IMG/VR virus record: IMGVR_UViG_3300045988_169095
Length of the DNA stretch: 64,000 nt
Direction: 5' to 3' (one strand)
From: a virus
Shown here: in pieces, positions 3,894 through 48,453 of the stretch
How the letters are laid out: every line of letters starts with the position of its first letter
Position numbering within the stretch: the first letter of the stretch is position 1
Program-made: the position numbers and the translations under genes
Notes under the pieces: model-generated
Told to the model about the DNA's origin: nothing
Seen by the model: the letters and a program-made list of their open reading frames with translations, nothing else
Database searches by the model: none

Positions 3894-3983
3894 AATTACA
3901 TTATTTGATCGCTACAAATATAGTTATAGTTCTATTTAAAACAAAATAAAAGCAGCCTTTTTATGAAGACTGCTTTTAAGAGG

Positions 3984-4526
3984 CTATGCTTTGAAAAAAT
4001 AGATTTTATTTCCCTTAGTATTTCCTATATCAATATGTAATCATGTAATTTCTCCATTATTATCTCATTTTTCTACACGTATAGGATACTTAAGTTTATC
4101 TTGATTATTTTCGAGAATTTCTCTCATCTCTTTAGCAGTTAATTTAGTTGATATTAAATCAAACGCTTGACCTTTATAATGATAGCCTGTAGGAGTACCA
4201 ACTCCACACCCAGGTTCTCTATAACCACTATAATTTCTAGATCCTCCTGCGTATCAATTGTTACATATAAGAGGAACATTTAGAATTTCTCTAACATTCT
4301 CTAAAGCTTCAAGAGCTTTTGGATCTAGAAATTTTATAGCATCATCTCCATATTGATTATATATTTTAGATGATACTAATTCTTTTACTTGAAAGTATTT
4401 ATTTGCTTGCATAATTTTATACAATAAGTTATGGCTACATCATTCTCTAATTAAAGACGGAATTGGTCTTTTGAATACAATATTGTTAGGATATAATTCT
4501 TTTAAATATTGAATTATTTTCTTCAT
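3984..4526 (-). CDS. Peptidase M15 (VanY or L-Ala-D-Glu peptidase-like) endolysin with 4 in-frame TGA=Trp codons.
   Basis: Motifs SGYREPG...H.KGQAFDL and W-LHIDIG, where the Trp is encoded by TGA. 181 codons, stop TAG. Confidence 0.65.
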
Positions 4527-5097
4527 TTCTGCCCCAATTTTGAAAAATGAATTGTTTTATCATATATTTTTAGTTTTTGCTAAGTTAGAAAAAATTTTGG
4601 GAAAATACAAGAAATTGTGTAGGTATTGTGAGGGAGAGGACAGTTAGCTTTTTTGGCCCCCTCCCGTTTTGTTTGGAAAATCGTTTAATTTTTTGGTTCA
4701 ATTTTTTGACATTTGAAACTTCAGACTGGGGTGGGTTGTTCAATTTTTGAACAATTACACGAAATATGCGTTTTTCTTGCTTTTTTCTTTGGTGCTTCAT
4801 CTTTTTTCGCTATCTTTGTAATGCGGTTAGGGAACAACGACAGCCGCGCACGTTCTTTGAAATGTTTGAGTCTTTAATAAAAATTTTTATAAACCTTTTA
4901 ATCACTTTACAATTATGATTATTATTATCGCAACCGACATTCACGTAAAAATCATTGAAAACGGGATTATTAACATTAAAGACTACCCCGCCGCCGAACT
5001 TGATTCCGTTCAATATGAACGTGAACCAGCCCGCAAATTTACAAGGGAGCAGGCAAAGGCATTAGGACTTATTAAATAATCTTAAAAACTTATAACA
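4527..5097. promoter_or_regulatory. Divergent intergenic region between the minus-strand late block and the plus-strand genes. Likely carries promoters, with short palindromes of the form TTCAAATTTTTGAA.
   Basis: No convincing ORF. AT-rich with short inverted and direct repeats. Transcription is divergent on either side. Confidence 0.4.
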
Positions 5098-5676
5098 ATG
5101 ATTAACATGGTAATGATTGACCCGCGGACGGGTGAAACGGTTCGATTTATGCAAAATGACATTATTTCGGTTCCCACGTTGGACAAAGGTGCTAAACTAT
5201 ACATAACTAAAAAACCTATATGGATTGCCACCGTAGTCAACCACGGGAACGAAATTAAACAACGGTTGTTTATGGTTGACTACACCGACCCTGATGCCCC
5301 GTTTGCTCGCTCTATGTACGTTACACAAATTGCGAGAATCGACGAAGGCGGAACAACGGTAAATAATCGCAAGCAAGGTAAATTAGCGTTTACCGACATT
5401 GTAAACACTAAGATTCATAAAGCAGGCGTTAAAAATACAGTTGTAGACCAACTTTGCGCGGGGAAATTTTTAACTGTCGTTGACACAAAAGCCGTCAAGG
5501 TTCACAAATACGACGAAACGGCAAAAGAATATATCGAGGATTTCGACGAACGTTTCGCATATTCGTGGGAAATATCGGCGGCAAAAAATATTGACGACAA
5601 ACAGGCCGAAACGATCATAATGCAAGCAATTGACCGACAATTTACTAAGGTTCCAACGGAGGAACAAACAGAGTAA
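5098..5676 (+). CDS. Hypothetical protein with an acidic C-terminal tail, possibly SSB-like. Paralog A.
   Basis: 192-aa ORF with RBS-like context. The acidic tail reads TEEQTE. Paralogous to the gene at 5818-6381. Confidence 0.55.
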   Translation: MINMVMIDPRTGETVRFMQNDIISVPTLDKGAKLYITKKPIWIATVVNHGNEIKQRLFMVDYTDPDAPFARSMYVTQIARIDEGGTTVNNRKQGKLAFTDIVNTKIHKAGVKNTVVDQLCAGKFLTVVDTKAVKVHKYDETAKEYIEDFDERFAYSWEISAAKNIDDKQAETIIMQAIDRQFTKVPTEEQTE

Positions 5677-5683
5677 ACAAGCA

Positions 5684-5710
5684 AAGCGGGGAATTTTCCC
5701 CGCTTTTTTT
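5684..5710 (+). terminator. Rho-independent terminator.
   Basis: Stem GCGGGG/CCCCGC followed by a T7 run. Confidence 0.6.
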
Positions 5711-5817
5711 GTGCCATAGCCAATGGGGCCCCCAAGATATGTAGTTGTATTACAACGATTCTTTGACGATAGAACGTATTTATCGTCGAAAAATGAAATT
5801 TTTAATACAACAAAAAT

Positions 5818-6381
5818 ATGGTAGTAAATCTCAAACAGATCGGCGGTGATGCAATTCTGCATATCGTCGAAAACAACATCATTCCGATGTCCGCTCTGGA
5901 GAAGGGCGACCGTTTCTACATCACGAAGAACCCTGTCTGGTTGGCAGAACAGCGTGGCACGAATGCCAATTCGCGTGCCCACGTCCTCGCAGTCTTCCTT
6001 GTTGACGACACGATGATCGTGAAGCCCGTGTACTTCAACCAGCTGGCACGTGTCGACCGTGAAACCAAGAAGCTCGTCATGGGTGACAAGGTGAACGCAA
6101 CGACCTATCGCGGTGGTTCGAAGGCCTTCAACAAGCTCGCAGCAGGTAAAATCCTGACGGTCAGCGAGGTGAACGAAGACGTGAACGATTTCTCGTACGA
6201 TCAGAACGGCCAGCGGAATCTGACCGAAGACGGTAAGCCGATGTTCACCAAGACCAAGGCATTCGGTTACAAGGTGGAAGACGGTAAGGCCATCAACGAT
6301 GCCGAAGCCACGAAGGCAATCGAGGAATACCTCAAGGACAACTATGTCCAGATCGACCCGAACGACGAACCGCAGGAGTAA
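5818..6381 (+). CDS. Hypothetical protein, paralog B of the gene at 5098-5676. GC-rich copy.
   Basis: 187 aa. Shares the ITK(K/N)P(I/V)W block with paralog A and ends in an acidic tail. Confidence 0.55.
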   Translation: MVVNLKQIGGDAILHIVENNIIPMSALEKGDRFYITKNPVWLAEQRGTNANSRAHVLAVFLVDDTMIVKPVYFNQLARVDRETKKLVMGDKVNATTYRGGSKAFNKLAAGKILTVSEVNEDVNDFSYDQNGQRNLTEDGKPMFTKTKAFGYKVEDGKAINDAEATKAIEEYLKDNYVQIDPNDEPQE

Positions 6382-6792
6382 TCCGTGGTTCACCGTTCGA
6401 GCTTGACTCGACGAGCAAAACTATTTGAGAGTTGGGGATAATAAATTTCCACTCTCAAATAGTATTTGCAAACCTTTCAAAGAGCCACGATTTTGTATTG
6501 TTATGCGTATGAATTTGTGGAATAATAAAGGAGAACGTAAATACCAATTAATTGATACAATATGTATTTCTTAAATTTTAATCCTCTTGGAAATGAGGGA
6601 AATGGAGGATATGTGGGAGTACTTATTTTCGTGGTGGTATTCTGTATTATATGTCATCTCCTCTTTGAAAGAGATGATCATTAGGCTTTGATCGGCCTCT
6701 TGGTCCCTAAGATTGCACCCGTCATAGTAAAGTGATTATTCTACTCTTTATCTGCGACAGAAATGAGTAGATTTTTTTTTATTTTTAGGTTT

Positions 6793-6960
6793 ATGAAAGA
6801 CGCAACAAAAGCAGCTATGAAAGCTGCATTGGCAGACATGGGTATTACCCTGGATAAGTTCAATAAGCTGGAACTCTCTGTAAAGCAAATGACAGAGATT
6901 GCAGCTGATGATGTGATTATCCGAAAAGAATCTATCACTACGGTGACAATTGAAGAGTAA
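6793..6960 (+). CDS. Small hypothetical protein (about 55 aa).
   Basis: ORF followed by a hairpin plus T-run at about 6945-6992. Confidence 0.3.
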   Translation: MKDATKAAMKAALADMGITLDKFNKLELSVKQMTEIAADDVIIRKESITTVTIEE

Positions 6961-7109
6961 GGAGGAATTAATCTTCCTACTCTTCAATTTTAAATTCGTC
7001 GTTTGGTTCTATTGTGAATGGATATCTTAAGAATCTTTTGACTTCTTGTCATCTGTCATAAGACAACTGTCCTTCAATTTTCTTTGTTTCCGAATTTACT
7101 ATTAAGTAA

Positions 7110-7829
7110 TTAGGTAAGGGAATATTCTTGGGTTTCAATGGATCCATCTTTGATTGATTTTAATTTATTAATTTCTTTCATAGCTCATTGAAGTTGTTTT
7201 TTGAGCTGTTCAATGTCTTCAGTATTCTTTTCTACTTTCTCATTTACATAAAGAACAGCTTGACAAACTTTAGCTAAATCTATAGCTCCTACAGTTCTTT
7301 GTAATCCAGTAGTTTCATCTCTTCTATAGGAAGTAAGTTCTGTAAGTATTCCTTCATCTCTCATTTCTTTATTTCTTCGTCTAATTGTTCTTACAGATGT
7401 ATGCATAGAATCTGCAAGCTCTTCTTGAGTTTTCATAGTATATGCAAATCCTGTAGCAGGGTCCTTGTAAGAATTGGCTAAAACTCCCATTACATGTCCT
7501 TTTAAATCGGGAGATCAGTCCTTATCCAAGAATTCAAATGTATATCGTTCAAAATCTTCTTCAAGTTTTGTAAATTTATACACATTTGGCATTCTAGGTT
7601 TTCGAATTACCGTAAATGCACCTTCTCTTTCTAAAGCTAAAATTGCTTTACGAATAGTGTTTAAAGCACACCCAGTTTCTTTTTTGATTGTATCTAAGGA
7701 TGGAAATGCTTCCATCGTGTCTTTATTCATATGACGGCGAATGTGGGCATAAATATATCAGTCTTTAGAAGATAAGTTCCATTTAGATGGGTGTGGAACT
7801 TGCACATGTTGATTTTTTGTATATTCCAT
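7110..7829 (-). CDS. DNA-binding protein with two winged-helix/HTH-like segments, a putative regulator or replication initiator. Contains 3 in-frame TGA=Trp codons.
   Basis: ATG at 7829..7827 preceded by an in-frame TAA. Two track ORFs (7515-7730, 7185-7490) share the frame and are joined by TGA. The 3' end runs through another TGA to the TAA at 7110. Confidence 0.5.
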
Positions 7830-8942: not shown

Positions 8943-9203
8943 TTGTACATCATGGAATACAAAGCAATTTCCAAGAAGACGATGCGATCGAAGGATTTCA
9001 AAGCTTTCAAAGCTCTCAAAGCAAAGAAACCTGGTTATCGCATGTACATCGTGACAACGGAAAAGAACACGAGAGACGTACTTTTCCGAACTCCGCGTGG
9101 ATTCTTCATGCAGGAAGATACCTTTCCTGCAATTGAAATCTCTGTAACACAGGCTCAAGCTTTCTTCGATAAGTATGGCATCGGAGTCGAAACAGGCTGG
9201 TAG
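8943..9203 (+). CDS. Small hypothetical protein.
   Basis: 86-aa ORF. Confidence 0.35.
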   Translation: MYIMEYKAISKKTMRSKDFKAFKALKAKKPGYRMYIVTTEKNTRDVLFRTPRGFFMQEDTFPAIEISVTQAQAFFDKYGIGVETGW

Positions 9204-9362
9204 ATATGACCAGAGAAGAGCTCAAAGAAAGAGTATCAAAGCTCATTCAAACATTAGAGAACGTTGAGAGATCTCTTCAGTTTACAAATATCCCTGTATA
9301 CGTTCTCACCAACTACATCAAAGAAGAAACAAACATTGACATCACAAAAAACTAAAAAGATC

Positions 9363-9698
9363 ATGGCAAAGAAAGAAATCAAACCGCAGACCATCGAAGA
9401 GGTCCTTGCAGAGCACACTCCGACCTCCGACGCTGTCAAGAGCGCAGTCCAGCGTTACAACGAAGAGAAGAAGAAGAAGCAGGAACAGATCATCATCGAT
9501 ACCCTCGGCGCCGTTGACTGCATCGTCTCGGACCTCGTGGACGACCTTCGCAGGATCCGTGCAGAAGAGAAACGAGCTCAGCAGCGTATCCTCGACGTGA
9601 CGGCGGCCAAGGAGGCCTATCTAGCAGATCCCGATCAGGAGGTTCTGGCCCAGGGGCTTCGCAAGGCAGGCATCAGTCTGTCCCGTTATGCAGAGTAA
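9363..9698 (+). CDS. Hypothetical protein, GC-rich.
   Basis: ATG at 9363 within the 9264-9698 ORF. Distinct GC-rich codon usage. Confidence 0.45.
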   Translation: MAKKEIKPQTIEEVLAEHTPTSDAVKSAVQRYNEEKKKKQEQIIIDTLGAVDCIVSDLVDDLRRIRAEEKRAQQRILDVTAAKEAYLADPDQEVLAQGLRKAGISLSRYAE

Positions 9699-10243
9699 CG
9701 GGAACTCGTCTAAGCGAGTCTAAACAGATCTTTAAGCTTAGAGCGTCTCTGGTCATAAAGACCAGAGGGTAGATAGAAGAAATTTAGAATTATAAAAATT
9801 TTAAATTTCTTATAAATTTATTATTATTATATTAATATTAGCCCACCTAATTATAAATAATCACCTAATTATAAATAATATGGAAGAACTTTGAATTCGG
9901 AAATATAATACTTAAAGGTGGGACGGAGGATATGGTCAGTTCCTTTGAGACAGTGCCATATTCAAGTATGTTATCTAGTCAATAATGTACTTCAGAGAAG
10001 GTTTTACACGCTCTGTTCCATTGTGCTATCAAGCCTTAACCCGACTTAAACTTAGTCTATGGGACTTTGATCGGTCCCATAGGCTCTTATGTGGTGGCGA
10101 TTGCCGCGTTAAGTTAATTTTGTTCATATTGTTAGTATTTTCTTCGAAATTGCCACATCTTGCAAGATCTGAGGGTTTGGTTGCAATCCAAGAAGCAGAA
10201 GAAAGAAAATGGTTGTAAACTAAGTATTTCAAGCAACAACGTT

Positions 10244-10318
10244 GCTCGGTTCGTCTAGTTGGCCTAGGACGCAGGATTTTCATTCCTGAAATCATGGGTT
10301 CAAATCCCATACCGAGTA
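10244..10318 (+). tRNA. tRNA-Glu(TTC).
   Basis: Cloverleaf with a Glu-type D-arm TCGTCTAG..GGACGC. Anticodon stem CAGGA/TCCTG with loop TTTTCAT. T-arm GGTTCAAATCC. Confidence 0.55.
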
Positions 10319-10457
10319 CAACTCAAACTTAAATAAATGAAATCTTTCCTCATAACGTATCTCTTCTACAATGAAGAAGGGATTCCGATTCAAAGTTCTC
10401 TTCCTGTTCTTGCTAAAGATGAATCTGACGCAAGAAATACTATGAAGTTACTCGCAT

Positions 10458-10730
10458 TTGGGTGCATTGAAATCATATCAATTCAAAGAAATGGATAATG
10501 AAACTCTCGGAGGTTGCATGGGAGCAATCATCGGAATTGTTGTAATTATCGCTATTGCAGCCTTCTTTATGAGCATTTTCATTTATTTGCTCTGGCCTGT
10601 AGTGATTCCCGCAGTATTTCCCAAACTTGTAGCAGAAGGTTACATTGTAGGTAAACTTTCACCTGCGCTCTCTTTAGGAGTTGCTATACTTTGTGCAAGT
10701 CTCTTTAAGGGAACTAGTTACAAAAATTAA
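10458..10730 (+). CDS. Small membrane protein.
   Basis: 90 aa with two TM helices. Confidence 0.4.
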   Translation: MGALKSYQFKEMDNETLGGCMGAIIGIVVIIAIAAFFMSIFIYLLWPVVIPAVFPKLVAEGYIVGKLSPALSLGVAILCASLFKGTSYKN

Positions 10731-10737
10731 AATTATT

Positions 10738-10811
10738 GGTGGTTTCATCTAGTTGCGTTAGGATACCAGAGTCTCATTCTGGAAACAGAGGTTGGAGTCC
10801 TCTAACCACTA
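10738..10811 (+). tRNA. tRNA, anticodon probably CTC, with an atypical G32 and T-loop TTGGAGT.
   Basis: Acceptor GGTGGTT/AACCACT. Anticodon stem CCAGA/TCTGG with loop GTCTCAT. Confidence 0.4.
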
Positions 10812-10845
10812 CAAACGTTTAACAATATCACAAATTGTACTTATG

Positions 10846-11571
10846 ACAAAAAATCTGTTCTCGAATCGCACTCCTTTTGAGAAGTGTTATCTCGTAGAAA
10901 ACGTAAAACAGCTTTCGTTCATTCCTGGGAATCGTAATCTCAGAATGGCTCATGTCAAAAGCATTTTCAAAGCCTTCCTTAACGGAGAGTGGATTCCTCC
11001 CGTGTTTGTCACTCCCAAAGGAGAGGTACTGGATGGTCAGCATCGTATCGCAGCATTTCGTATGCTGAAGGAGAAATACCCTGACAGCAAAGCAGCTCTT
11101 CCTGTGATGGTTGTTAATGCAGACGAATCAGCTCTGTTGTCGGCAATCAAGTTTAATTCGGGACATGCCAATTGGGTGATTGAGGACTACATGAGAGCGC
11201 ATCTGGAGAAAGGTATTCATGGGTATGAGCAGCTTCGTGACTTTTTGAAGGCTTACCCTGAATTCGAAATCAAAGCTGCAATCCAGCTTATCAAGGGTAA
11301 GCACTCTACGAAAGAGTTCAAAGAAGGAGCTCTGAAAATCTCTGACGAAGAGTACATGGAAGCTTCCAAAAAGGCTGCTGCTCTGTGTCTTATCTCAGTG
11401 AAACTCAACACCAAGGTCGTTTTCCGTCGGGATATCGTGGTGGCATTCTACCGCGTATGGGATAAAATCCCCAATATCCAGACGTATGTCAAACGACTGA
11501 GTCTCTTCAAAATGCCGCTCACTGAATCCCGTAAAGAATGGGAGAGAGCGTACGAGGACTTACTGCGGTAA
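10846..11571 (+). CDS. ParB/Srx-superfamily DGQHR-domain protein (DndB-like).
   Basis: The VLDGQHRIAAF motif. ATG at 10846, downstream of the tRNA. Confidence 0.55.
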   Translation, partial: TKNLFSNRTPFEKCYLVENVKQLSFIPGNRNLRMAHVKSIFKAFLNGEWIPPVFVTPKGEVLDGQHRIAAFRMLKEKYPDSKAALPVMVVNADESALLSAIKFNSGHANWVIEDYMRAHLEKGIHGYEQLRDFLKAYPEFEIKAAIQLIKGKHSTKEFKEGALKISDEEYMEASKKAAALCLISVKLNTKVVFRRDIVVAFYRVWDKIPNIQTYVKRLSLFKMPLTESRKEWERAYEDLLR

Positions 11572-11574
11572 GAC

Positions 11575-12230
11575 CTCTATAAGTCAATAAAGTTTTTACT
11601 TTATGCCTGCTACGATTTTCGAGCGTGTGATTAAATAGAAATTCCTTTAAGGAATTCTATTATGAACGCAGGTCGGTGATGGTCACTATCTCAGCCTCGC
11701 CACAACGAAATACGCGCTGTCTGCTGTTGTTTTCTTTTTACATAACTTGAATCAACTGGATTAAACCTTGATTTAGAGAGGGAATTAAAGGCAATCCTTA
11801 TAAATAAGCCTGTATTTTACTTCTGCCGTGGTAACGCAGATGAATAAGTGTTTGGTTGATTTAAGGTGAATCGTTTTCTTTGATTGTAGGTTCTTGTCGT
11901 AAGAAGTAACCTACGGGTTGTAGAGTTCGGGCTAACAAGCCCTTAAACCTACTTAATCAACTCTACAAGCTTTGTAAATTTAGTCACTTTACAAAGTGTA
12001 ACTCTACCTGCTGAGCGAGTCCTCTTACGGAGTTCGAGGAAGGATGCAGGACGACTTGCGCCAAGGTCCGAAGAATGTCTACTTCGTCGACACAGCAAGA
12101 GATCTTTACTTGAAGGCTCATACTTTCTTTGTTTGTCCAGAGAGTGTAAAGATTTTAATATTTATGTGGCCGATTAATTTATCTATATCTGTAGCCTGGC
12201 AAGCGTTGACAATGCAGATATTTTTTTAAT
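11575..12230 (+). ncRNA. Candidate large structured ncRNA (ORF-poor and stem-loop-rich, about 650 nt).
   Basis: No credible ORF. Multiple hairpins, including GGGCTAACAAGCCC and CTTTGTAAA..TTTACAAAG. The motif AACTCTAC recurs three times. Confidence 0.3.
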
Positions 12231-13073: not shown

Positions 13074-13146
13074 AGAGCTATAGTATTTATAGGTAAGTAC
13101 ACTACTCTGAGGAGTAGAGATAGAGGTTCAAATCCTCTTAGCTCTC
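13074..13146 (+). tRNA. tRNA-like gene with a non-canonical anticodon arm (6-bp stem CTACTC/GAGTAG with a 4-nt loop, or an 8-nt loop TCTGAGGA). Identity unresolved.
   Basis: Acceptor AGAGCTA/TAGCTCT. D-stem GTAT/GTAC. T-arm AGAGGTTCAAATCCTCT. Confidence 0.4.
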
Positions 13147-13283
13147 CAAGACTTTTAAAATTTGTATAATGGAAAAAGTGACACAAAATGTACCTGATAC
13201 AGGTTATACAGATCCTGATGAATTCGTGAATGACCCTTGTATCGAAGCCATAGAGGATGAAGAACTTCTTAACATAGAATAAT

Positions 13284-13703
13284 ATGTACATAATAACTTT
13301 AATTTTAGGAATTGTAGGTGTCGTCCTTCTTGCTTTTGCAATCAGGGAAGATGAAGATGATCGAGCCTTCCCGTTGGGAATACTATCAGTAGTCTCTCTG
13401 ATATGCTCAGTGATGCTCTGGTGCTATACTGACACCAAGCATGAACGAGAACAACCCTTAACAACAATTTCAACTTTTGTTGAGGAGCATTCTCAATACC
13501 TCTCTCCAACTACAGTGAGAACTATAAGTGCAGCACCTATTCGGAAAATGCCTGATGGATGTTTCGTATATAGTGTTATTCTGGTTGATCAGGATTCTAT
13601 GTATACGTATTCTGCAGTTCTGGACCCTGAGAACATTGAGGTAGTTAATTTTATTCTCGAAGAATCTATTCCTCGACTCGAAAATCATCAAAATAAAAAA
13701 TAA
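13284..13703 (+). CDS. Membrane protein.
   Basis: 139 aa with an N-terminal TM segment. Confidence 0.45.
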   Translation: MYIITLILGIVGVVLLAFAIREDEDDRAFPLGILSVVSLICSVMLWCYTDTKHEREQPLTTISTFVEEHSQYLSPTTVRTISAAPIRKMPDGCFVYSVILVDQDSMYTYSAVLDPENIEVVNFILEESIPRLENHQNKK

Positions 13704-13706
13704 ACA

Positions 13707-14369
13707 ATGGCAAAAAATCGTCTTTTTGGTTGGATGTTCGTTGAGGACTCCAATAAAGAGCCTGAGACAGTTAAACCTCGTACTTCACAGGAAGCGTCTG
13801 CTCCTGCTGCGGTTGCTTTTCCCAGTCCTGTCGTAACTTCTGTGCCTGCTCCTACGATTATGGCATCAGGAGATGTAGATACCAAATTGGTGGAACTCCT
13901 GGAACGCAAGATCAACGAAGCAAATCTTCCTGGTCCTGACTATCTGGAACTTCTCCAGTCTGCGGAACAGATGAAGCAGTATATCCCTGATGAGACTACA
14001 CGTCTCAAAGCTGCTTTTGGTTCCATTCAGGGCATGGATCCTCGGATGACGAAGGATGTCGTTCTGGCATCGATTGACACCTATCTGGGTGTAATTGAAG
14101 CTGAACGAGGGAAAGCAAAGCTTCGCATGGAAAAGCTTCGTAAGGAAACTGTCGAGGATAAGGCAGAAGAGCTGAAGGCAACAAATCTTCGTATCGAGCA
14201 GCTTCGTGAGGAACTGAAAACTCTCACGGACAAGTCGATTGATCTCAATTCCGAAATTCAGAAGAATACGGCAGAGACGACCGCATTTGAAGCTCGAACG
14301 AATGCGACCATCGACAAGGTTACGAATCGCCTGAACGAGGACAAGGTCCGACTGGCACAAATTCTGTAA
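13707..14369 (+). CDS. Coiled-coil protein with a Pro/Ala-rich N-terminus, possibly PspA/IM30-like.
   Basis: 220 aa. Heptad-rich, GC-rich. Confidence 0.45.
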   Translation: MAKNRLFGWMFVEDSNKEPETVKPRTSQEASAPAAVAFPSPVVTSVPAPTIMASGDVDTKLVELLERKINEANLPGPDYLELLQSAEQMKQYIPDETTRLKAAFGSIQGMDPRMTKDVVLASIDTYLGVIEAERGKAKLRMEKLRKETVEDKAEELKATNLRIEQLREELKTLTDKSIDLNSEIQKNTAETTAFEARTNATIDKVTNRLNEDKVRLAQIL

Positions 14370-14371
14370 GT

Positions 14372-15406
14372 ATGATGCTGCCTGAAGGTTCAAGTCTCTC
14401 TAACTGGGAAAAACCAGGAGGCAAAACTGGTATGGTAGTTTTGGGTTTGTTAGGTGCAGGAGGGTTGATGCTTTTTTATAAAGCTCTTCCTTTCCTGATT
14501 ACTCTGGCATCTAATACACTGTACTTTGGGCTGCTCCTGGGATTAATTGCAGGAATTATCTATCTCCTGTGTGATCCCAAGTTCAGGAAAATCTGCTCTG
14601 CCACTTATTTTATGTTAATGAGAAAGCTGACTGGATTGGTTATTGAAATCGATCCTATTGCTATCGTGGAACAACGTATCCGTGATATGCAGAAAAAGTC
14701 AGCTGACATTAAAAAGGTAATGGGAGATCTCAGAGGTTGTATCATTCGTTCTAAGAACGATATTCAGAACGATACAAGGGAAATGCGTAATTGCATGGAT
14801 GAAGCACAAGTGTCTGAGCGTAATGGAAACATTGCAATGGCAACAATTCAAAAGCGCCAAGCACTTCGTCTTAAAGAATCGTTAGATGATCAGTTACTTG
14901 CTCTTAAGAACTCAGAAATGTGGTTTGATAAGCTTAAAAAGCTTGAAGAGTATGCTAATCTGACGATTCAGGATGTTACTAACGAAGTAAATATTCGTAA
15001 GAAAACATTCGAGCGCATTCGTGCCCAGCACAAAGCTTTCAAATCTGTAATGTCTATCGTTAAGGGAGACCCTGACGAATTGGCAATGTTCACTGATGCT
15101 ATGGATTTCATGGCAAAGGATATCTCGGATAAAATCGGAGAGATGGAACATGTCATTGACTCTACTACGGGTATGCTGGCTGACCTGGACGCAAAGAATG
15201 GTGTTGCCAATATGAGGGCAGAAGAATTGTTGGAACGATACAACAAGTCAGGAATTGACAGTCTCTTTAATAAGTTCTCTGATGGTCGTAAGGCTATCGC
15301 TGCACCGAAAGTAGGGGAGTATGTTCAGTTCCAAGAAATTCTCAAAGTCCCCGTAAATGGTAACGAAGCCGCTCCCAAGTCCCTCGACGATTTCTGGGGT
15401 GAGTAA
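14372..15406 (+). CDS. Membrane-anchored coiled-coil protein, possibly TelA/PspA-like.
   Basis: 344 aa. Two N-terminal TM helices followed by a long helical domain. Confidence 0.45.
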   Translation: MMLPEGSSLSNWEKPGGKTGMVVLGLLGAGGLMLFYKALPFLITLASNTLYFGLLLGLIAGIIYLLCDPKFRKICSATYFMLMRKLTGLVIEIDPIAIVEQRIRDMQKKSADIKKVMGDLRGCIIRSKNDIQNDTREMRNCMDEAQVSERNGNIAMATIQKRQALRLKESLDDQLLALKNSEMWFDKLKKLEEYANLTIQDVTNEVNIRKKTFERIRAQHKAFKSVMSIVKGDPDELAMFTDAMDFMAKDISDKIGEMEHVIDSTTGMLADLDAKNGVANMRAEELLERYNKSGIDSLFNKFSDGRKAIAAPKVGEYVQFQEILKVPVNGNEAAPKSLDDFWGE

Positions 15407-16142
15407 ATTCTTTCTGAATAATAGAAATATTGCTATATGTATTCTTCTGAATACTGTAGTGATATTTCTGTTGTCCTTTCATCGATTCCAACATGTCCTT
15501 TTGCCACTAGATGTGGCGTTTACCATATTCTTTATAATAGAGATGATTGTCAAGATTAGATGTCTTGGTAAATTATTCTTTAAGGATAAAGAATGTGTTT
15601 TTGATTTATTAATTGTTGTAGTTTCATCAATCCCATTATTTGGGTTATTCAGTTTAGATTGGATTCAAGTAATGCGATTGACTCGAATATTTAAGAGTCT
15701 TCGATTGTTTGAATTGATTCCTAATTACAAAAAATTACTCATCAATTTTAGGTTAGTAATTCGAAGTTGCATTGGAATCTTAGTAGGATTATCTATTTTG
15801 ATTTTTCTATTATCAATTATTCTGTCTTCTTTATATGGAAATATAGTTCCAGAGTATTTTGGAAATCCCCTTGAAAGTATTTATTCAGTTTTCCGATTGT
15901 TTTCTATTGAGGGTTGGTATGATATTCCAAATGCTATTGCTGAGCGTAGTTCCTATGTAATGGGATATTTATCTAAGTTTTTCTTATCAGGTATAGTTCT
16001 TGTTTTTGGTATATTCGGAATGGGATTTGTATCATCTATGTTTATTGATGAGGTAACTTCAGATAATAATGATGAAGTTCTACAACGATTAAGTAAGTTA
16101 GAAGAAATTTTAAAGAAAATACAAGAAAATGGCACAACTTAA
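15357..16142 (+). CDS. Voltage-gated cation-channel-like protein (6 TM, BacNaV/NaChBac-like).
   Basis: S1-S6 segments. S4 with Arg every third position (RLTRIFKSLRLF). Pore helix and filter FSIEGW. C-terminal coiled coil. The start may be GTG at 15398. Confidence 0.5.
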   Translation: MVTKPLPSPSTISGVSKFFLNNRNIAICILLNTVVIFLLSFHRFQHVLLPLDVAFTIFFIIEMIVKIRCLGKLFFKDKECVFDLLIVVVSSIPLFGLFSLDWIQVMRLTRIFKSLRLFELIPNYKKLLINFRLVIRSCIGILVGLSILIFLLSIILSSLYGNIVPEYFGNPLESIYSVFRLFSIEGWYDIPNAIAERSSYVMGYLSKFFLSGIVLVFGIFGMGFVSSMFIDEVTSDNNDEVLQRLSKLEEILKKIQENGTT

Positions 16143-17655
16143 GCCAGGATTCAAAGTAGTCCTGATCATGGTCGCTGTAATTGCAGCATTTTTCGTAATC
16201 AAAGCCGTCGTCCCTTCCTCCTCGTCGTCGGGGTCATCCTCTACTTCGGGTCTCGGCGACATCTTCGGAGGAAAACCGACCATCAACATCGGAGTTAACA
16301 CGTATGCGGGGTTCGCTCCCATCGTGTGGATTAATGGTGGTCTTCGTCCCAATGACGAGTCTATCCTGACTAAGGAGTATGGCATTCGTGCCAATATCAT
16401 TATCCAGGATGATTTTGTTGCTGGACGTAACGCTTTCCTGAATGGGGATATCGACCTTATTTATTGTACTACGGATGTATTGGCCGTAGAGATGGGTGAA
16501 GGTTCCGCAATGAACAGTGCTAAGTATGTAATGATGCTTAACCGTTCTCAGGGGGCAGATGCAATGGTAGTTACCAAGAATATTCGTACCGTTGCAGATC
16601 TTAAGGGTAAAAAGATTGCAGTAGCTGAAGGAACTGCATCTCATACTCTTCTTCTGAATATTCTTGAAACGAACGGGATCAGTCAGCATGACGTAACACT
16701 TGTGAAAGTTGATAACGGTGGTGCTGCAGCTGACACATTCAAAGCAGGTCAGGTAGATGCTTGTGTTACATGGGCACCTGATGACCAGGCTTGTGTAGAT
16801 GCTATTCCTGGTTCGAGAGTCCTCGTTTCAACCAAACATGCAAAAGACCTTGTAACAGATGGTCTTGTAGGAAAGGCAGAGTGGCTGGATAAGAATCATA
16901 ACGATGTTAAAAAACTTATTTCTGCAATTCTCTATGCTAATTCTACCCTGAATCAGAATCCGAATGCAGTGAAAGAAGCTTCGAAGATCTTCGCAAAGGC
17001 GTTTGGAACTGATCCTGAGTTTGCAGAATTGGGGTGTGGGAATATCTGGTTCGCTACTCTCGGTGATGAAGAAAATTTCTTTGGAATGACTTCCGATTAT
17101 ATGGGAATGAAGGCTGAAGAAATCTATTCAAAGATGGCTCGAACCTATGCTAGCCTTGGGCTTACTAAAAGTCCTCTGGGTTGGCGTAAAGTTTCCGACA
17201 TGTCGTTCATCGAGGAGCTTTCCAATGAGGGTACTGTACAAGGCAATCAGGCTCCTCAACCCGCAGTTAAGTTCTCTGCTGTAACATCAGAAGTCAGGGA
17301 AAAACAGGCAATTTCTAATAAGAAGTTGACTATTAATTTCCCTGTCAATGGTGACATCCTCGACAATGATGCTCGAGCTCTTATTGATCGAGAGTTTGTT
17401 CCGATTGCGAAGCAGTTCAACAATGCACGTGTTCGTATTGAAGGTAACACTGATAATACAGGTAATCGTGCGTACAACGAGTCTCTTTCATCTCGACGGG
17501 CTCAGGCTGTAGCTAATTATTTAATTAATGACTACGGTTTTGATCCCAATCGATTCATTATCGTTGGTAACGGTCCCAAGAATGCAATCCGTGATGGTGT
17601 GCAGGGTTCCAACATCAACTACCGAACAACTGATTTCATGCTCGTAACTGAGTAG
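16129..17655 (+). CDS. ABC-transporter substrate-binding protein (NMT1/SsuA/TauA family) fused to a C-terminal OmpA/MotB-like domain.
   Basis: N-terminal TM anchor, periplasmic binding fold, and a C-terminal NTDNTGNRAYNESLSSRRAQAV OmpA motif. Confidence 0.55.
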   Translation: MAQLKPGFKVVLIMVAVIAAFFVIKAVVPSSSSSGSSSTSGLGDIFGGKPTINIGVNTYAGFAPIVWINGGLRPNDESILTKEYGIRANIIIQDDFVAGRNAFLNGDIDLIYCTTDVLAVEMGEGSAMNSAKYVMMLNRSQGADAMVVTKNIRTVADLKGKKIAVAEGTASHTLLLNILETNGISQHDVTLVKVDNGGAAADTFKAGQVDACVTWAPDDQACVDAIPGSRVLVSTKHAKDLVTDGLVGKAEWLDKNHNDVKKLISAILYANSTLNQNPNAVKEASKIFAKAFGTDPEFAELGCGNIWFATLGDEENFFGMTSDYMGMKAEEIYSKMARTYASLGLTKSPLGWRKVSDMSFIEELSNEGTVQGNQAPQPAVKFSAVTSEVREKQAISNKKLTINFPVNGDILDNDARALIDREFVPIAKQFNNARVRIEGNTDNTGNRAYNESLSSRRAQAVANYLINDYGFDPNRFIIVGNGPKNAIRDGVQGSNINYRTTDFMLVTE

Positions 17656-17656
17656 T

Positions 17657-18493
17657 ATGCAGTTGTTCAAAATGGGTGGGACAATCACCTATAAACAAGC
17701 ATTGGCAACAGGTATCATAGGAGCAATAGTTCTGCTGCTCCTATGGTATCTAGTTACCATGTCAGGGGAAATCATTCGTCCTCAGATTTTACCGAATCCT
17801 ATAAATGTGCTCAAGGCATATCCAGATTTAATCTCTAACTCAGCCCTCTTTACCAATACTTGGTATACAATAAAGCTGAATCTTATGGGATATTTCTATG
17901 CTTTAATCATTGCAATCCCTTTGGGCCTTATTATAGGATTGTTTCCCGTTACTAAAGCGTTATTTGGCAAGTATTTTGATGCCCTTCGTTATCTCCCTAT
18001 ACCTGCAGTGTCTGGCATTTTTATCGCTGCTATAGGTATTGGATTCGATATGAAGGCTAGTTTTTTGGCTTTCGGCATTATTATTTACATTCTTCCTGTC
18101 GTTGTTCAACGAGTTTCCGAACTTCAGAATCCCGCTAATGATAAGGATTATGTGTATTTACAAACCATTTCAACGTTAGGTGCAACTAATTGGCAGAAAT
18201 TTCGATACGTTTATTTTCCTTATGTAATGCAGCGAGTTTCCACTGATGTCATTAATCTAACTGCTATTTCTTACACTTATATAGTGATTGCAGAAACCCT
18301 TAACAAGGAAGGTGGCATTGGTGCGCTGATAAACATAATGAGCAGACAGTCAAGAACTGCCGAAGTCTATGCACTTCTCTTCTTGATTATTGCTATTGGA
18401 ATTCTCCAAGATGTCCTTCTAAAGAAATTGGATGTTGTGCTCTTTCCTTCAAAGTACAATAAGCCATCCATCAAATCCAAAATAATGAAATAA
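17657..18493 (+). CDS. ABC-transporter permease (SsuC/TauC family).
   Basis: Six TM helices and an EAA-type loop (TLGATNWQKFRYVYFP). Confidence 0.6.
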   Translation: MQLFKMGGTITYKQALATGIIGAIVLLLLWYLVTMSGEIIRPQILPNPINVLKAYPDLISNSALFTNTWYTIKLNLMGYFYALIIAIPLGLIIGLFPVTKALFGKYFDALRYLPIPAVSGIFIAAIGIGFDMKASFLAFGIIIYILPVVVQRVSELQNPANDKDYVYLQTISTLGATNWQKFRYVYFPYVMQRVSTDVINLTAISYTYIVIAETLNKEGGIGALINIMSRQSRTAEVYALLFLIIAIGILQDVLLKKLDVVLFPSKYNKPSIKSKIMK

Positions 18494-18495
18494 GT

Positions 18496-19332
18496 ATGGG
18501 GCTCTTTGATGGTTTAACTGGATCCGTTCCAGTTCCCACATCTCGTTATGAGGCTGTGGATGTAATTAACTTGAAAAATCTTAACCAGTCTTTTGATACT
18601 CCTAAAGGAAAGTTCACTCTCTTTAAGGATTTTAGTCTGGATATAAAAGATTTCTCAGGAGAAGGGCAGTTTATCAGTATCTTAGGAAAGAGTGGTTGTG
18701 GTAAATCTCAGCTGCTCAAAATCATCTCTGGGCTTACACAGCCAGATTCAGGTGAAGTTCTTGTTTATGGGAAACCACAGACAGGAAAAATTCCTATGGT
18801 ATTTCAGCAGTATTCTTCATTTCCATGGATGTCAGTTCTTGACAATGTAAAACTTCCGCTCATACTTCGAGGAGTTTCTGATAAAGAAGCTACAGAGAGG
18901 GCTATGGAAATGATCAAAATTGTAGGTCTGGAAGGTAATGAAACTAAATGGGGTCAGTATCCTGTGTTATCGGGAGGACAGCTTCAACGAGTTTCAATGG
19001 CGCGAGCCCTGGTTGCAGATAACAAAATTCTTTTGTTAGATGAAGCCACTGGTGCATTAGATATTGTTATGAAACGAGAGATTCAGAACACCATTTTGGA
19101 TATCTATTATAACGCCAAATTCGATCCTACAATCCTCAATGTTACACATAGCATTGAGGAGGCTGTATATCTCTCAAATCGAATTTACATTTTAGCTCCT
19201 AATCCCTGTAAAGTTCAGGCTGTCATTGATGTTAACTTTGACGGTAGGAGAACGGATGCAATTCGTCAAACTACAGCATTTGCAAATTATGTGAAACAAG
19301 TAGAACAAGTAATGTCAGAAACACATGAGTAA
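18496..19332 (+). CDS. ABC-transporter ATP-binding protein.
   Basis: Walker A GKSGCGKS, signature LSGGQLQRV, Walker B LLLDEAT. Confidence 0.7.
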   Translation: MGLFDGLTGSVPVPTSRYEAVDVINLKNLNQSFDTPKGKFTLFKDFSLDIKDFSGEGQFISILGKSGCGKSQLLKIISGLTQPDSGEVLVYGKPQTGKIPMVFQQYSSFPWMSVLDNVKLPLILRGVSDKEATERAMEMIKIVGLEGNETKWGQYPVLSGGQLQRVSMARALVADNKILLLDEATGALDIVMKREIQNTILDIYYNAKFDPTILNVTHSIEEAVYLSNRIYILAPNPCKVQAVIDVNFDGRRTDAIRQTTAFANYVKQVEQVMSETHE

Positions 19333-19531: not shown

Positions 19532-19602
19532 GGTGGAGTCGTCTAGCGATTTAGGACGCCAGTTCTCAGCTGGAAACAGTAGTTTGAATCTACTCTCCAC
19601 TA
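19532..19602 (+). tRNA. tRNA with a Glu-type body. Anticodon loop TTCTCAG, probably CTC.
   Basis: Acceptor GGTGGAG/CTCCACT with G1.U72. D-arm TCGTCTAGCGATTTAGGAC. T-arm AGTAGTTTGAATCTACT. Confidence 0.45.
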
Positions 19603-19806
19603 CACTATTTTAATTATTTAATTTAGTTAGGGGTGCTCCTATATAATGCACGGTAGGATATTACCTAAGTATGCCCGAGCTAGTTGCTGAGAATCTCGTT
19701 AAACTTTAGAAATGTGGGTTTCAGAATTTATAATCCCCCGCAGCTAAAAATTCCCAGATACTATCAACTGGGAGCCTAACGGTATCCTCTTTGATAGTAT
19801 CTATTT

Positions 19807-19879
19807 GGTCTGTTCGTCTAGTGATCTAGGACATTATCTTCTCAAGGTAAAGACAGAGGTTTGAATCCTCTACAGACTA
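19807..19879 (+). tRNA. tRNA-Glu(CTC).
   Basis: Acceptor GGTCTGT/ACAGACT with G1.U72. Anticodon stem TTATC/GGTAA with loop TTCTCAA. Confidence 0.5.
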
Positions 19880-19895
19880 CTAATATTAGTAAACT

Positions 19896-27296: not shown

Positions 27297-27401
27297 GGCC
27301 ATGCTTGCTTCTCCATTTTATGGCCCTGTAAGCAAAGTGGTAAAGCTGCTTATATATTCTAGGTTCATAAGTGTGTGGAGGTTCGAGTCCTTCCATGGCC
27401 A
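27297..27401 (+). tRNA. tRNA-like element with an unresolved intervening body. Acceptor strands GGCCATG/CATGGCC are about 93 nt apart. The 3' part TCATA-AGTGTGT-GGAGG-TTCGAGT-CCTTC resembles the 3' half at 27128.
   Basis: Canonical T-arm and acceptor pairing, but the D-arm and anticodon arm cannot be placed canonically. Possible intron or rearrangement. Confidence 0.3.
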
Positions 27402-27500
27402 CGTGGTTTCATATTTAATTTGTTTTTAAGAAGAGGTAACTTACAGCAAATTTAAGTATAATTCGTCTGTTAATTATTCATAGTTACCTAGTTTTAAGGA

Positions 27501-36313: not shown

Positions 36314-36802
36314 ATGGATAAAATTTGTTCAAAATGTGGGGAAACTAAAGACATTTCACTCTTTGCTAAGGATCGACACTCTTCTGATGGATATACTTAT
36401 TGATGTAAAGATTGTAGAAATACAGCAAATAAGAAATATCGGAAAGAAAATCCTGATAAAGTTCAGGAACATAATGAAAAGTGAAGAGATAAAAGAAAAG
36501 AATATTATAGTCTTCCTAAAAATCAAGAAAAGCTTAGAAGACATCATCTCAAGAAAATGTATAATATTACTTTGGAAGACTATGATGCTTTGTTTCAACT
36601 TCAAGGTGGTGTTTGTGCTATATGTGGAAAACCTGAAACAAGCTCAAAGGCTAGTAACTTAGCAGTAGATCATAATCACACAAATGGTAGTATTAGAGGC
36701 CTATTATGTAATAAATGTAATAGAGGCTTAGGATATTTTGAAGATGATGCAACTATTTTGTCTAAAGCTATAGAATATTTAAAAAATAAAGATAATGTTT
36801 AG
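36314..36802 (+). CDS. HNH endonuclease (T4 endonuclease VII-like) with 2 in-frame TGA=Trp codons.
   Basis: N-terminal zinc-ribbon CSKCG..CKDC joins in frame to the track ORF at 36557-36802, which carries CAICGK and DHNH. Confidence 0.5.
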
Positions 36803-38279: not shown

Positions 38280-39049
38280 TGAAAGAAGTATATGAAGGAA
38301 TAGTTTCCTTTCTTAAGAATTATCAAGAACGTACCCATGTGAAAGGGTATGTTCTTGGTATTTCTGGAGGAAAGGATTCTACTGTAGTGGCCAAATTATT
38401 GGTAGATTCTATAGGTAAGGAAAATGTATTAGGTGTGCTAATGCCTAATGGTAAGCAAGCTGATATTGAGGATAGTTATACAGTATGTGACTTTCTTGAT
38501 ATTAACTATACTGTTGTTAATATAGAAAATGCGTTTGATGAACTTATTCATCAAATTGATGTTTCGAAAATAACTACAGTGGAAGGGAATGAAGAAAACA
38601 TTCCAGTAACGAAAAAGGCTCTTACTAATGTTCCTCCTCGTATTCGTATGACTATTCTATATACTATAGCTCAGTCTGTAGGATATCGAGTAGCGGGGAC
38701 TAGTAATGCTTCAGAATTATTTATTGGTTGGGGAACTAAATGGGGAGATTTGGCATCTGATATTAATCCTATTTCTCAATTAACATGTTCTGAAGTTATT
38801 TCTTTAGGAGACTATATGGGACTCCCATATGATCTTATACATAAGACTCCTGCAGATGGATTAACAGGAAAGTCTGATGAAGAAAATTTTGGTTTTACAT
38901 ATAAAGAACTTGACACTCTTATTGTAAAGCAGCGAAATCTTACTTGCACAGGTAGAATACAATGTGCTTTTACTGAACAAGAATTAAAAATCTTAAAATT
39001 ACATGAAGCTGCGTATCACAAAGATCATGTAATTAAAATACAGTATTAA
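38261..39049 (+). CDS. NH3-dependent NAD+ synthetase (NadE)-like PP-loop ATPase.
   Basis: The motif GYVLGISGGKDSTVVAKLL (SGGxDS PP-loop) and NadE-like length. Confidence 0.55.
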   Translation: MEREILMKEVYEGIVSFLKNYQERTHVKGYVLGISGGKDSTVVAKLLVDSIGKENVLGVLMPNGKQADIEDSYTVCDFLDINYTVVNIENAFDELIHQIDVSKITTVEGNEENIPVTKKALTNVPPRIRMTILYTIAQSVGYRVAGTSNASELFIGWGTKWGDLASDINPISQLTCSEVISLGDYMGLPYDLIHKTPADGLTGKSDEENFGFTYKELDTLIVKQRNLTCTGRIQCAFTEQELKILKLHEAAYHKDHVIKIQY

Positions 39050-39050
39050 T

Positions 39051-42175: not shown

Positions 42176-42185
42176 CTTCATAGGC

Positions 42186-42205
42186 GGATTTACTCCGCCT
42201 TTTGA
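42186..42205 (+). terminator. Rho-independent terminator.
   Basis: Stem GGCGGA..TCCGCC followed by TTTT. Confidence 0.5.
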
Positions 42206-48437: not shown

Positions 48438-48453
48438 CAAATAAGAAGTAAAT

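Follow-up and report, generated by a model that had tools for sequence, protein, structure and literature searches.

The closest described relatives of the protein considered here are single-domain voltage-gated cation channels with six transmembrane (TM) helices. These include the bacterial channels NavAb, NavMs and NaChBac, and the ancestor-like BacNav (AnclNav) channels, among them CavMr, a native Ca2+ channel with the selectivity filter TLEGWVD (PMC7041947). The channels described from viruses are smaller. Kcv and the K+ channels of vibriophages and mycobacteriophages have two TM helices (four in one case) and a GFGD-type filter, and they lack a voltage sensor. The phage channels listed by Greiner et al. 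2018 (PMC6163359) in their survey of viral transport proteins are of the two- to four-TM K+ type only, and the words voltage, sodium channel and calcium channel never occur in that survey. We analysed a stretch of 64,000 nucleotides of viral DNA (IMG/VR record IMGVR_UViG_3300045988_169095), which we call the window and which belongs to a Lak-like Prevotella megaphage. One of its genes, gene C, is highly likely to encode a genuine voltage-gated cation channel.

Like the viral K+ pores, gene C is a virus-carried channel gene with cellular homologues, and its product presumably acts on the potential or ion balance of the host. Unlike them, it encodes a full six-TM subunit of the Nav/Cav type. Channel genes of viruses are thus already known as such; what is new is a complete voltage-gated Nav/Cav-type subunit in phages, and a deep phage clade of such channels that derives from an unstudied Bacteroidota family with a Cav-like filter. 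We found no literature on ion channels of Lak phages or megaphages in the open-access papers searched.

Fold and family of the channel protein

The channel gene and the predicted functional parts of its product are as follows.

15357-16142, + strand: gene C, channel protein, 261 amino acids (aa)
15663-15719, + strand: S4 voltage-sensor helix, aa 103-121, with R107, R110, K113 and R116 at every third position
15903-15923, + strand: selectivity filter, S183-I-E-G-W-Y-D189
16062-16133, + strand: acidic neck, D236-N-N-D-E240, then a short amphipathic C-terminal helix with V241, L245, L248, L252 and I255 at a/d positions

Gene C matches the Pfam family Ion_trans (PF00520) with 73.5 bits (gathering threshold 25; E=2e-20) over profile positions 8-225 of 241. 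A phmmer search of the PDB gave 116 matches, the best of which are NavAb chimeras, NavMs and NaChBac (E=7e-17 to 1e-13, with about 210 residues aligned). A hydropathy scan detected S1, S2, S3, S5 and S6. The AlphaFold2 single-chain model, based on 16 family sequences, has S1-S6 and two pore helices, with a mean predicted local distance difference test score (pLDDT) of 80.8. Its helices span residues 22-39, 45-70, 78-95, 100-120, 124-160, 171-181 and 184-197 (pore), and 200-259. In a Foldseek search of the PDB with this model, the top 50 matches were all chains of NavAb, NavMs, NaChBac, CavAb, Nav1.7 chimeras or CatSper, with TM-scores up to 0.73. Because the Pfam, PDB sequence and fold searches agree, we regard gene C as encoding a subunit of a voltage-gated cation channel, and not a member of an unrelated transporter family.

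The initial annotation of the window, made by a model from the letters alone, had described a six-TM channel-like protein with an Arg-periodic S4 helix. Hydropathy and the AlphaFold2 model bear this out, and R107, R110, K113 and R116 align with the R1-R4 gating charges of NavMs and NavAb. Among 16 diverse phage and bacterial members of the family, F59 and E62 (S2), D83 (S3), R107, R110 and P122 are invariant. The same holds for F168, P171, Y176, F179, R180, E185, G186, W187, Y188 and P191 in the pore segment and, in the C-terminal part, for G218, D231 and the neck D236-N-N-D239. The charge-transfer triad, consisting of an aromatic and an acidic residue in S2 and an acidic residue in S3, was defined from Kv and Nav structures; we take F59, E62 and D83 to be this classical centre. 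A D-x4-DNND motif is present in 96 of 120 family proteins. In the model the helix continues unbroken from S6 to residue 259, with hydrophobic residues at a/d positions for about 2.5 heptads; a crude heptad test of this short segment was insignificant.

We built neighbour-joining trees (254 columns, 200 bootstraps) with the reference channels of Shimomura et al. 2020 (PMC7041947). All reference channel groups are split from a family consisting of Bacteroidota and phage sequences with 100% bootstrap. Gene C lies outside the NavAb-like and Bacillus groups of canonical BacNav channels, and the AnclNav references, CavMr and NavPp included, cluster with the remaining references, not with the family of gene C. 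Relatives occur in at least 545 GTDB species genomes. The best 80 of these genomes, which include isolates, are nearly all Prevotella, Paludibacteraceae, Dysgonomonas, Bacteroides and similar. One Prevotella copy (P0067) lies in an ordinary chromosomal context and has the same DNNDE neck and C-terminal helix. The relatives of gene C fall into three tiers: 81-99% identity (the window's own lineage, on contigs up to 170 kb), 44-53%, and 35-41% (bacterial). Among the matches listed, identity to the closest cellular genomes is at most 42%. Judging from these sequences, the family appears to be a Bacteroidota-wide, previously uncharacterised branch of the single-domain BacNav/AnclNav superfamily.

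The comparison with the two described groups can be summarised as follows. Gene C shares with NavAb, NavMs and NaChBac the topology, the S4 charges, the charge-transfer centre and the architecture of the pore helices (TM-scores of 0.6-0.73). However, its filter has Gly-Trp-Tyr-Asp in place of Ser-Trp-Ser/Ala-Met/Ser, it belongs to a separate clade, and pairwise identity is about 20-25%. With CavMr and the AnclNav channels it shares the single-domain, six-TM voltage-gated type, Glu3, Gly4, Trp5 and an acidic residue at position 7 of the filter, and a C-terminal helical tail. It differs from them in forming a separate clade, in Ser1, Ile2 and Tyr6, in lacking the long extracellular loop between P2 and S6, in its invariant DNNDE neck, and in being encoded by a phage.

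Selectivity filter and ion preference

The pore loop FSIEGWYD aligns column by column with TLESWSM of NavAb and NavMs. The statement in the initial annotation that FSIEGW recalls TLESW, the selectivity filter of bacterial Na+ channels, therefore holds for the alignment, but the filter resembles TLEGWVD of CavMr more than it does the Na+ type. The filter consensus of phage and bacterial family members is [ST][IV]EGWY[DE]. Of the family members tallied, a single one has Ser at position 4 and the rest have Gly; at position 7, nearly every member has Asp or Glu. The canonical BacNav filter TLESW(S/A)x is absent from gene C (SIEGWYD), whose G186 and D189 provide the Gly at position 4 and the polar or acidic residue at position 7 that mark a CavMr-type filter.

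Work on CavMr and its relatives gives these residues a possible meaning (PMC7041947). Experiments on CavMr showed that its Ca2+ selectivity is determined by the Gly at position 4. The mutations G4D and G4S lower the ratio of Ca2+ to Na+ permeability (PCa/PNa) from >100 to ~8-12, and D7M is tolerated. NavPp acquires Ca2+ selectivity upon the mutation D4G, and Gly at position 4 is also conserved in domains I and III of animal Cav channels.

By sequence, the filter of gene C is closer to the Ca2+-selective CavMr type than to the Na+-type TLESW. Because Glu3, Gly4 and Asp7 are as in CavMr and as in domains I and III of animal Cav channels, the phage channel might prefer Ca2+, a proposal that we place slightly short of probable. 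By the same analogy, it is more likely that the channel would conduct Ca2+, or Ca2+ together with monovalent cations, than Na+ alone. Two observations count against this assignment. The family stands apart from CavMr, and filters are not always transferable between backbones, as exchanges of filters between NavAb and CavMr gave no current (PMC7041947), so the selectivity argument is weak. In addition, position 6 is Tyr in gene C and Val in CavMr, and the CavMr mutation V6T reduces Ca2+ selectivity (PMC7041947).

The alternative, implied by the initial annotation, is a Na+-selective channel like the canonical BacNav proteins, with which the phage would collapse or tune the sodium-motive force of its host. 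Bacteroidota respire with the Na+-pumping NQR, so that Na+ entry would be physiologically meaningful. The best solved matches of gene C are NavAb, NavMs and NaChBac, the Glu and Trp of its filter are common to TLESW, and one protein of the phage clade (P0055) has the filter TIESWYE. However, as no CavMr structure is among the solved matches, these matches cannot tell the two types apart. Further, Gly at position 4 is near-universal in the family, Asp or Glu occupies position 7 in almost all members, and Gly is the Ca2+ determinant in both CavMr and NavPp (PMC7041947). The family is also split from both canonical Nav groups with 100% bootstrap. We therefore regard Na+ selectivity as unlikely, and a Ca2+-permeable channel as the preferred reading of the filter.

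P0055 comprises 29 member sequences and belongs to the phage clade in which the channel gene adjoins DNMK (see below). Its natural variant TIESWYE, with Ser at position 4, has the same Gly-to-Ser change as the CavMr G4S mutant with lost Ca2+ selectivity. As a phylogenetically distinct family with a Cav-like filter and small proteins (about 260 aa), the relatives of gene C could give a second, independent natural test of the rule that glycine at position 4 confers Ca2+ selectivity.

History and selection of the phage copies

Relatives of the second tier, and some of those with about 40% identity, are found on huge-phage contigs (233 kb and 387 kb, and 215-380 kb in IMG/VR). In addition to the arrangement in the window, there is a second synteny, in which the channel gene lies between DNMK and NUDIX genes and near ClpB-like, PTH2, thioredoxin and thymidylate synthase genes; these channels are 40-50% identical to one another. 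We observed the DNMK-channel-NUDIX block on contigs L002, L005, L008, L015, L026-L029 and L037, which are up to 387 kb long. The channels of huge phages, comprising the window's clade, the clades with DNMK synteny, P0047 and P0054, are monophyletic with 94% bootstrap and sister to bacterial sequences, with internal identity down to 40%. Because they group at this support, the channels of gut huge phages look like the result of one old acquisition that later moved within phage genomes. A second, independent capture by phage is indicated by the tree for three IMG/VR contigs of 47-189 kb (L038, L039 and L040). Their channels, which have the filter variant EGWN[ST], form a clade with 100% support that is nested among bacterial sequences.

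In a comparison of the window with two relatives of 89-90% identity (L024 and L025), the ratio of nonsynonymous to synonymous substitution rates (dN/dS) of gene C is 0.09-0.10 at a dS of 0.4-0.7. The neighbouring genes have ratios of 0.02-0.09. The phage channel gene is under purifying selection and has long been retained.

Several findings point the other way. With the channel as query, tblastn found nothing in 50,697 deposited phage genomes, the 15 deposited Lak genomes among them. (This absence, like that of any such channel from the survey in PMC6163359, agrees with the initial annotation's remark that such channels are not typical phage cargo.) In the closest Logan relative (L004), a run of five T has become six in the part encoding S5 (10440-10460, corresponding to window positions 15798-15802), and the resulting frameshift splits the gene into open reading frames (ORFs) of 197 aa and 81 aa. 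The sixth T could be a sequencing or assembly error or a homopolymer on/off switch. On the contig IMGVR_UViG_3300045988_149335 (L033), the channel is degraded along with the whole gene cluster around it. Finally, many clusters of channel proteins are truncated (e.g. P0015, P0025, P0026 and P0030). The frameshifted, degraded and truncated copies and the absence from Lak genomes mean that the channel is dispensable or that some assemblies are faulty; many of the comparison contigs are short-read metagenome assemblies.

These same findings, namely the absence from deposited Lak genomes and the broken relatives, could be explained if the channel were a neutral, decaying passenger from a Bacteroidota genome or another phage. 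In other Lak-like phages, moreover, the position that it occupies in the window holds unrelated small ORFs or homing-endonuclease genes. Neutral decay is at odds with a dN/dS of about 0.1 at a dS of 0.4-0.7, with an old monophyletic clade (94%) that has a second synteny on contigs up to 387 kb, and with a fully phage-like codon composition (GC content at third codon positions, GC3, of 0.248). We consider this explanation very improbable.

Purifying selection bears similarly on the idea that the phage protein is a decoy or dominant-negative subunit that co-assembles with the host's channel via the neck and C-terminal helix. Heterotetramers are conceivable, given that Prevotella chromosomes (P0067, and isolates) encode a family member with the same neck and helix. 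A pure poison subunit, however, would have no need of the intact pore and sensor residues that selection has maintained, and identity to the host proteins is just 35-42%. The prospects of this explanation are very slim.

We favour the reading that gene C encodes a functional subunit of a voltage-gated cation channel that assembles as a homotetramer and most likely has host-type activity. As an overall explanation we consider this fairly probable, an assessment in which the identity of the protein as a channel carries the most weight.

The captured operon and a possible role in infection

Gene C lies within a cluster of six genes, preceded by one further small gene.

13284-13703, + strand: small TM protein, 139 aa, directly 5′ of the module, with two hydrophobic segments
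13707-14369, + strand: gene A, 220 aa, soluble protein
14372-15406, + strand: gene B, 344 aa, membrane-anchored protein
15357-16142, + strand: gene C, the channel
16129-17655, + strand: gene D, 508 aa, fusion of a substrate-binding protein and an OmpA-like domain
17657-18493, + strand: gene E, 278 aa, permease
18496-19332, + strand: gene F, 278 aa, ATPase of an ATP-binding cassette (ABC) transporter

Gene C overlaps gene B by 50 nt and gene D by 14 nt, which leaves no space for a separate terminator and makes co-transcription likely. From this layout, the six packed genes are almost certainly co-transcribed.

The five genes other than the channel have a clear origin. The isolate Dysgonomonas sp. 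521 (QVMO01000021.1) has A-B-D-E-F in the same order, with identities of 26, 46, 57, 61 and 55%. A rhomboid protease gene follows this operon, and genes for seryl-tRNA synthetase and a GH43 protein flank it. Compared with the Dysgonomonas operon, which has no channel between B and D, the phage has the inserted channel and the small upstream TM protein. In Lak-A1 the order is likewise A-B-D-E-F (30, 37, 57, 49 and 53% identity), where the B-D junction holds a 109-aa ORF unrelated to the channel, and the order recurs in the Lak-like contigs L009-L012 and L122. The A-B-D-E-F operon is thus native to Bacteroidales and was captured by Lak-like phages. We ruled out that the channel is part of a conserved Lak module, given that the B-D junction is without it in Lak-A1, L009-L012 and L122. 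Rather, the channel is an extra, lineage-specific occupant of this junction in one sublineage.

The base composition of the cluster reflects these two histories. The GC content is 0.475 for A, 0.417 for B, 0.444 for D, 0.376 for E and 0.389 for F, compared with a window mean of 0.349; the raised values follow from the capture of the operon from Bacteroidales. At 0.305, gene C is the most AT-rich of the cluster and below the window mean. Because it is AT-rich amid GC-rich neighbours, the channel gene is compositionally phage-like and of different origin from them. The idea that the GC-rich cluster was acquired from a host is thus right for A, B, D, E and F, which match the Dysgonomonas operon, but not for the channel. 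GC richness as a sign of recent transfer of the channel from host to phage is ruled out, given the AT richness of the channel and its place in an old clade specific to phages. Further GC-rich stretches of the window (0.39-0.53) lie at 5000-7000 and 9000-12000, the latter including a ParB-like gene at 10792-11571, so GC richness is not unique to the cluster.

The module is also a landing site for mobile elements. DUF723 endonuclease genes lie between the binding-protein and permease genes in L012 (12499-13434) and in L122. In L122 (JGI contig Ga0564435_0004), a LAGLIDADG intein is present in the ATPase gene (9610-11943; 777-aa product). In L033, several frameshifts and deletions break up A-B-C-D-(E)-F at 3600-7700, and gene E is lacking, which reflects either decay in that lineage or poor assembly.

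Genes D, E and F constitute, by their sequences, an ABC importer of the NitT/TauT type, and their Pfam matches, like that of C, are all above gathering thresholds. Gene D has a TM anchor (aa 10-28), an NMT1/SsuA-like domain (about aa 80-360; NMT1 56.5 bits, NMT1_2 51.1 bits) and an OmpA-like domain (PF00691, 61.3 bits against a threshold of 27.2; residues 404-494). The translation of D contains the motif NTDNTGNRAYNESLSSRRA, with the conserved Asp and Arg of this kind of peptidoglycan-binding domain. Given the TM anchor and the OmpA-like domain, D would bridge the inner membrane and the cell wall. Gene E matches BPD_transp_1 (40 bits), has multiple TM segments and is closest to the NCBIfam families SaoP, TauC and SsuC. 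Gene F matches ABC_tran (96.6 bits), has a Walker A motif (GKSGCGKS), a signature (LSGGQLQR) and a Walker B motif (ILLLDEA), and is closest to SaoA and TauB. The importer of the nitrate/sulfonate/taurine type with a binding protein fused to an OmpA-like domain, as originally proposed, is therefore confirmed by profile searches. The NCBIfam equivalogs give no assignment of D, E and F to a particular substrate (sulfonate, taurine, nitrate, urea or Sao), as even the best scores lie far under the curated cut-offs (SsuA_fam 94 against 163.5, SaoP 74 against 295, SaoA 171 against 360). Homologues of D are annotated by JGI as 'NitT/TauT family transport system substrate-binding protein', and the NCBI name of the Dysgonomonas binding protein is 'phosphate ABC transporter substrate-binding/OmpA family protein'. 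Over its full length D also matches PHROG 25518 (phrog_25518; E=3e-56), a phage family of unknown function; nothing in PHROGs matches the channel.

Gene A has an N-terminus rich in Pro, Ser and Thr and a helical core that is conserved (GPDYLEL...IPDE..R); its C-terminal region is helical and resembles a coiled coil. It has no TM segment by hydropathy scan and no significant Pfam family. A accompanies B as a conserved partner: a homologue of A precedes B with 26% identity in Dysgonomonas sp. 521 (E=6e-21), 30% in Lak-A1 and 34-37% in further Lak-like contigs. Homology of A to B (hhalign probability 41%) was not accepted.

Gene B has two to three N-terminal hydrophobic helices by hydropathy scan, predicted to anchor it in the inner membrane. 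Its AlphaFold2 model, with a mean pLDDT of 66 and values of 82-93 in residues 111-190, consists of long helical hairpins, and the top 11 Foldseek matches in the PDB are Vipp1 or PspA proteins (E from 2.9e-4 to 1.9e-2). B superposes on 6zvs_A with a TM-score of 0.81 and a root-mean-square deviation of 3.0 Å over 136 columns, where the B model is of medium confidence and helical hairpins are a common fold. One homologue of B (P0131) has a precomputed match to PspA_IM30 (PF04012). The structural comparison suggests that B is a probable membrane-anchored member of the PspA/ESCRT-III superfamily. The hairpin core of its model can be superposed on PspA and Vipp1, and it has a weak PspA_IM30 match, but N-terminal TM helices replace the amphipathic helix, and sequence similarity is below family thresholds. 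A profile of 26 B homologues found no PspA or Vipp1 by sequence in the PDB, only coiled-coil noise.

The two proteins upstream of the channel had been described as coiled-coil proteins, one of them membrane-anchored. The TM helices and helical hairpins of B fit this description; the heptad pattern fits it less well. In the crude heptad-periodicity test, no protein among A, B and C exceeded shuffled controls, with A and B borderline and the tail of C negative. Coiled coils in the three proteins are suggested by predicted long helices and by analogy with their families.

The small TM protein is 97-99% identical in close relatives and 45-62% in L024 and L025. It is absent from Lak-A1 and from the bacterial operon, and searches of Pfam, PHROG and PADLOC gave no family for it. 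The protein evolves fast and is specific to its lineage, and it is uncertain whether it belongs to the module. About 140 nt upstream of its gene (13284), ARAGORN reports a tRNA-like gene with the two-base anticodon 'ga' (13074-13147).

Channel and operon are adjacent in three independent settings. In the window's lineage, the channel lies between B and D. On the distant 154-kb IMG/VR contig L039, which carries the second phage capture, genes for a B-like protein, the binding protein-OmpA fusion, the permease and the ATPase (25-30% identity) are followed by the channel 1.6 kb on. In a Paludibacteraceae metagenome-assembled genome (JAZLJL010000092.1; L101, 1-3915), the channel lies about 200 nt after the ATPase gene, on the same strand as the binding protein-OmpA, permease and ATPase genes. 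The genes after this channel, judged from their translations, encode a RumA-like methyltransferase and a metallophosphoesterase, both housekeeping. This locus is a hint that, in cells, a single transcription unit can comprise both the channel and the ABC system. By a rough estimate, 1 match in 80 genomes would arise by chance about 1 time in 7, and the two phage adjacencies are each an event of about 2%. A functional linkage of channel and operon is therefore no more than suggestive.

This linkage, and a shared envelope function built on it, must be set against three points. The adjacency was found in 1 of 80 bacterial loci (with 3-kb flanks). On the Lak-like contig Ga0564435_0004, the channel is about 25 kb away from the module. 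Moreover, the PspA-like assignment of B combines a medium-confidence model with a Pfam match below threshold (PspA_IM30, 15.6 bits against 33.9; E=0.013).

What the channel might do during infection is correspondingly tentative, and we regard the following role as doubtful. The protein would form tetramers and insert into the Prevotella inner membrane after infection. Depolarisation would open the channel, and cations (Ca2+ and/or Na+) would flow down their gradient. Thereby the phage might supply or augment host-type channel activity during a long megaphage infection. Normal activity, not that of a crippled or leaky channel, is suggested because every family-invariant residue is kept. Such activity could serve to maintain or alter the homeostasis of cations and voltage, as part of a toolkit for managing the host envelope. 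Its other components would be protein A, the PspA/Vipp1-like protein B, the ABC importer tethered to the inner membrane and peptidoglycan, and a membrane-organising SPFH protein encoded elsewhere in the window (31197-32810). Retention of the gene under purifying selection in a deep huge-phage clade suggests that megaphages manipulate the membrane potential or cation signalling of their hosts, a side of infection that has gone unrecognised. Independently of the channel, the flanking operon is a widespread, unstudied envelope system of Bacteroidales that megaphages have captured.

Alternatively, the channel could be a device for timing or exclusion, in which influx triggered by depolarisation would bring about host shutdown, superinfection exclusion (a block to DNA injection by competing phages) or priming of lysis. 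The logic would be analogous to that of the chlorovirus K+ channel Kcv or of holin-induced depolarisation. Chlorovirus channels depolarise their host, and K+ conductance changes in T4 and T5 infection (PMC6163359). The gene is accessory and found in some Lak-like lineages only, as is typical of competition genes, and the accompanying PspA-like membrane-stress protein could shield the infected cell from its own leak. Yet all invariants of the cellular family, including the voltage sensor, are kept, the sequence has no sign of a constitutive leak, and Pfam and PHROG searches identified no lysis genes adjoining the channel. We therefore consider such a device quite unlikely.

A more speculative extension of the favoured host-type activity is that the megaphage channel, being voltage-gated and Ca2+-permeable, is an electrical control element of the infected cell. 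It would sense depolarisation, be it from stress on the envelope, from abortive-infection defences or from superinfecting phages, and turn it into a Ca2+ or other cation signal, which would act together with the PspA-like protein and the tethered ABC system. This is distinctly improbable. If true, the repeated and independently evolved juxtaposition of channel and operon, in two phage lineages and a bacterium, would mark a real functional unit and not a chance co-location of membrane genes. The channel would then also be the first voltage-gated channel acting in a phage infection cycle, in a new, tractable Cav-like prokaryotic clade.

We also considered the module as a defence system. The PADLOC matches were confined to single domains and coiled coils (ZorB for the OmpA-like domain, mad3 for the ATPase, LmuB and JetC for coiled coils), which are no evidence for such a function.

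We now note further properties of the window. At the nucleotide level, the region matches 15 Prevotella Lak megaphage records and no others among 50,697 phage records, apart from two weak matches (about 67% identity over the ABC genes) to an uncultured 735-kb phage. IMG/VR contains near-identical viral contigs of 100-178 kb, and the window has 27 tRNA genes, all on the + strand and spread over 10244-51263. These matches and contigs, and the tRNA genes with their CTA suppressor, support the phage origin of the window, which is that of a Lak-like Prevotella megaphage.

Recoding of TAG to Gln has been described in Lak phages (PMC8346664), and the suppressor tRNAs of the window with anticodons CTA and TCA are consistent with the stop-codon recoding reported for them. 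Relaxing any single stop codon gives longer ORFs in the window, so this test does not tell codes 15 and 11 apart. All six module genes are intact under code 11. Among them only gene D ends in TAG (17653-17655); reading this codon as Gln under code 15 would add 12 residues before a TAA.

The remaining features of the window mentioned here are the following.

19532-19603 and 19807-19880, + strand: two tRNA-Glu(ctc) genes, just 3′ of the ABC ATPase gene
e.g. 27322-27402 and 48348-48438, + strand: tRNA genes; of the 27 in the window, one is a suppressor type with anticodon CTA (reads TAG) and one with TCA (reads TGA)
31197-32810: SPFH/Band-7 protein, 537 aa, membrane-organising (E=1e-26; GC content 0.437)
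36795-38279: NAMPT-like gene, at the start of a metabolic gene island (36795-43537)
38261-39049: NAD synthase, in the same island
39941-41035: adenylosuccinate-synthetase-like gene, in the same island
42476-43537: IMPDH/GMP reductase, in the same island

Crisci et al. reported a Mg2+ transporter in the Lak core (PMC8346664). The island for NAD salvage and purine metabolism agrees with published observations on 'NAD-jumbo phage' (PMC11662467).

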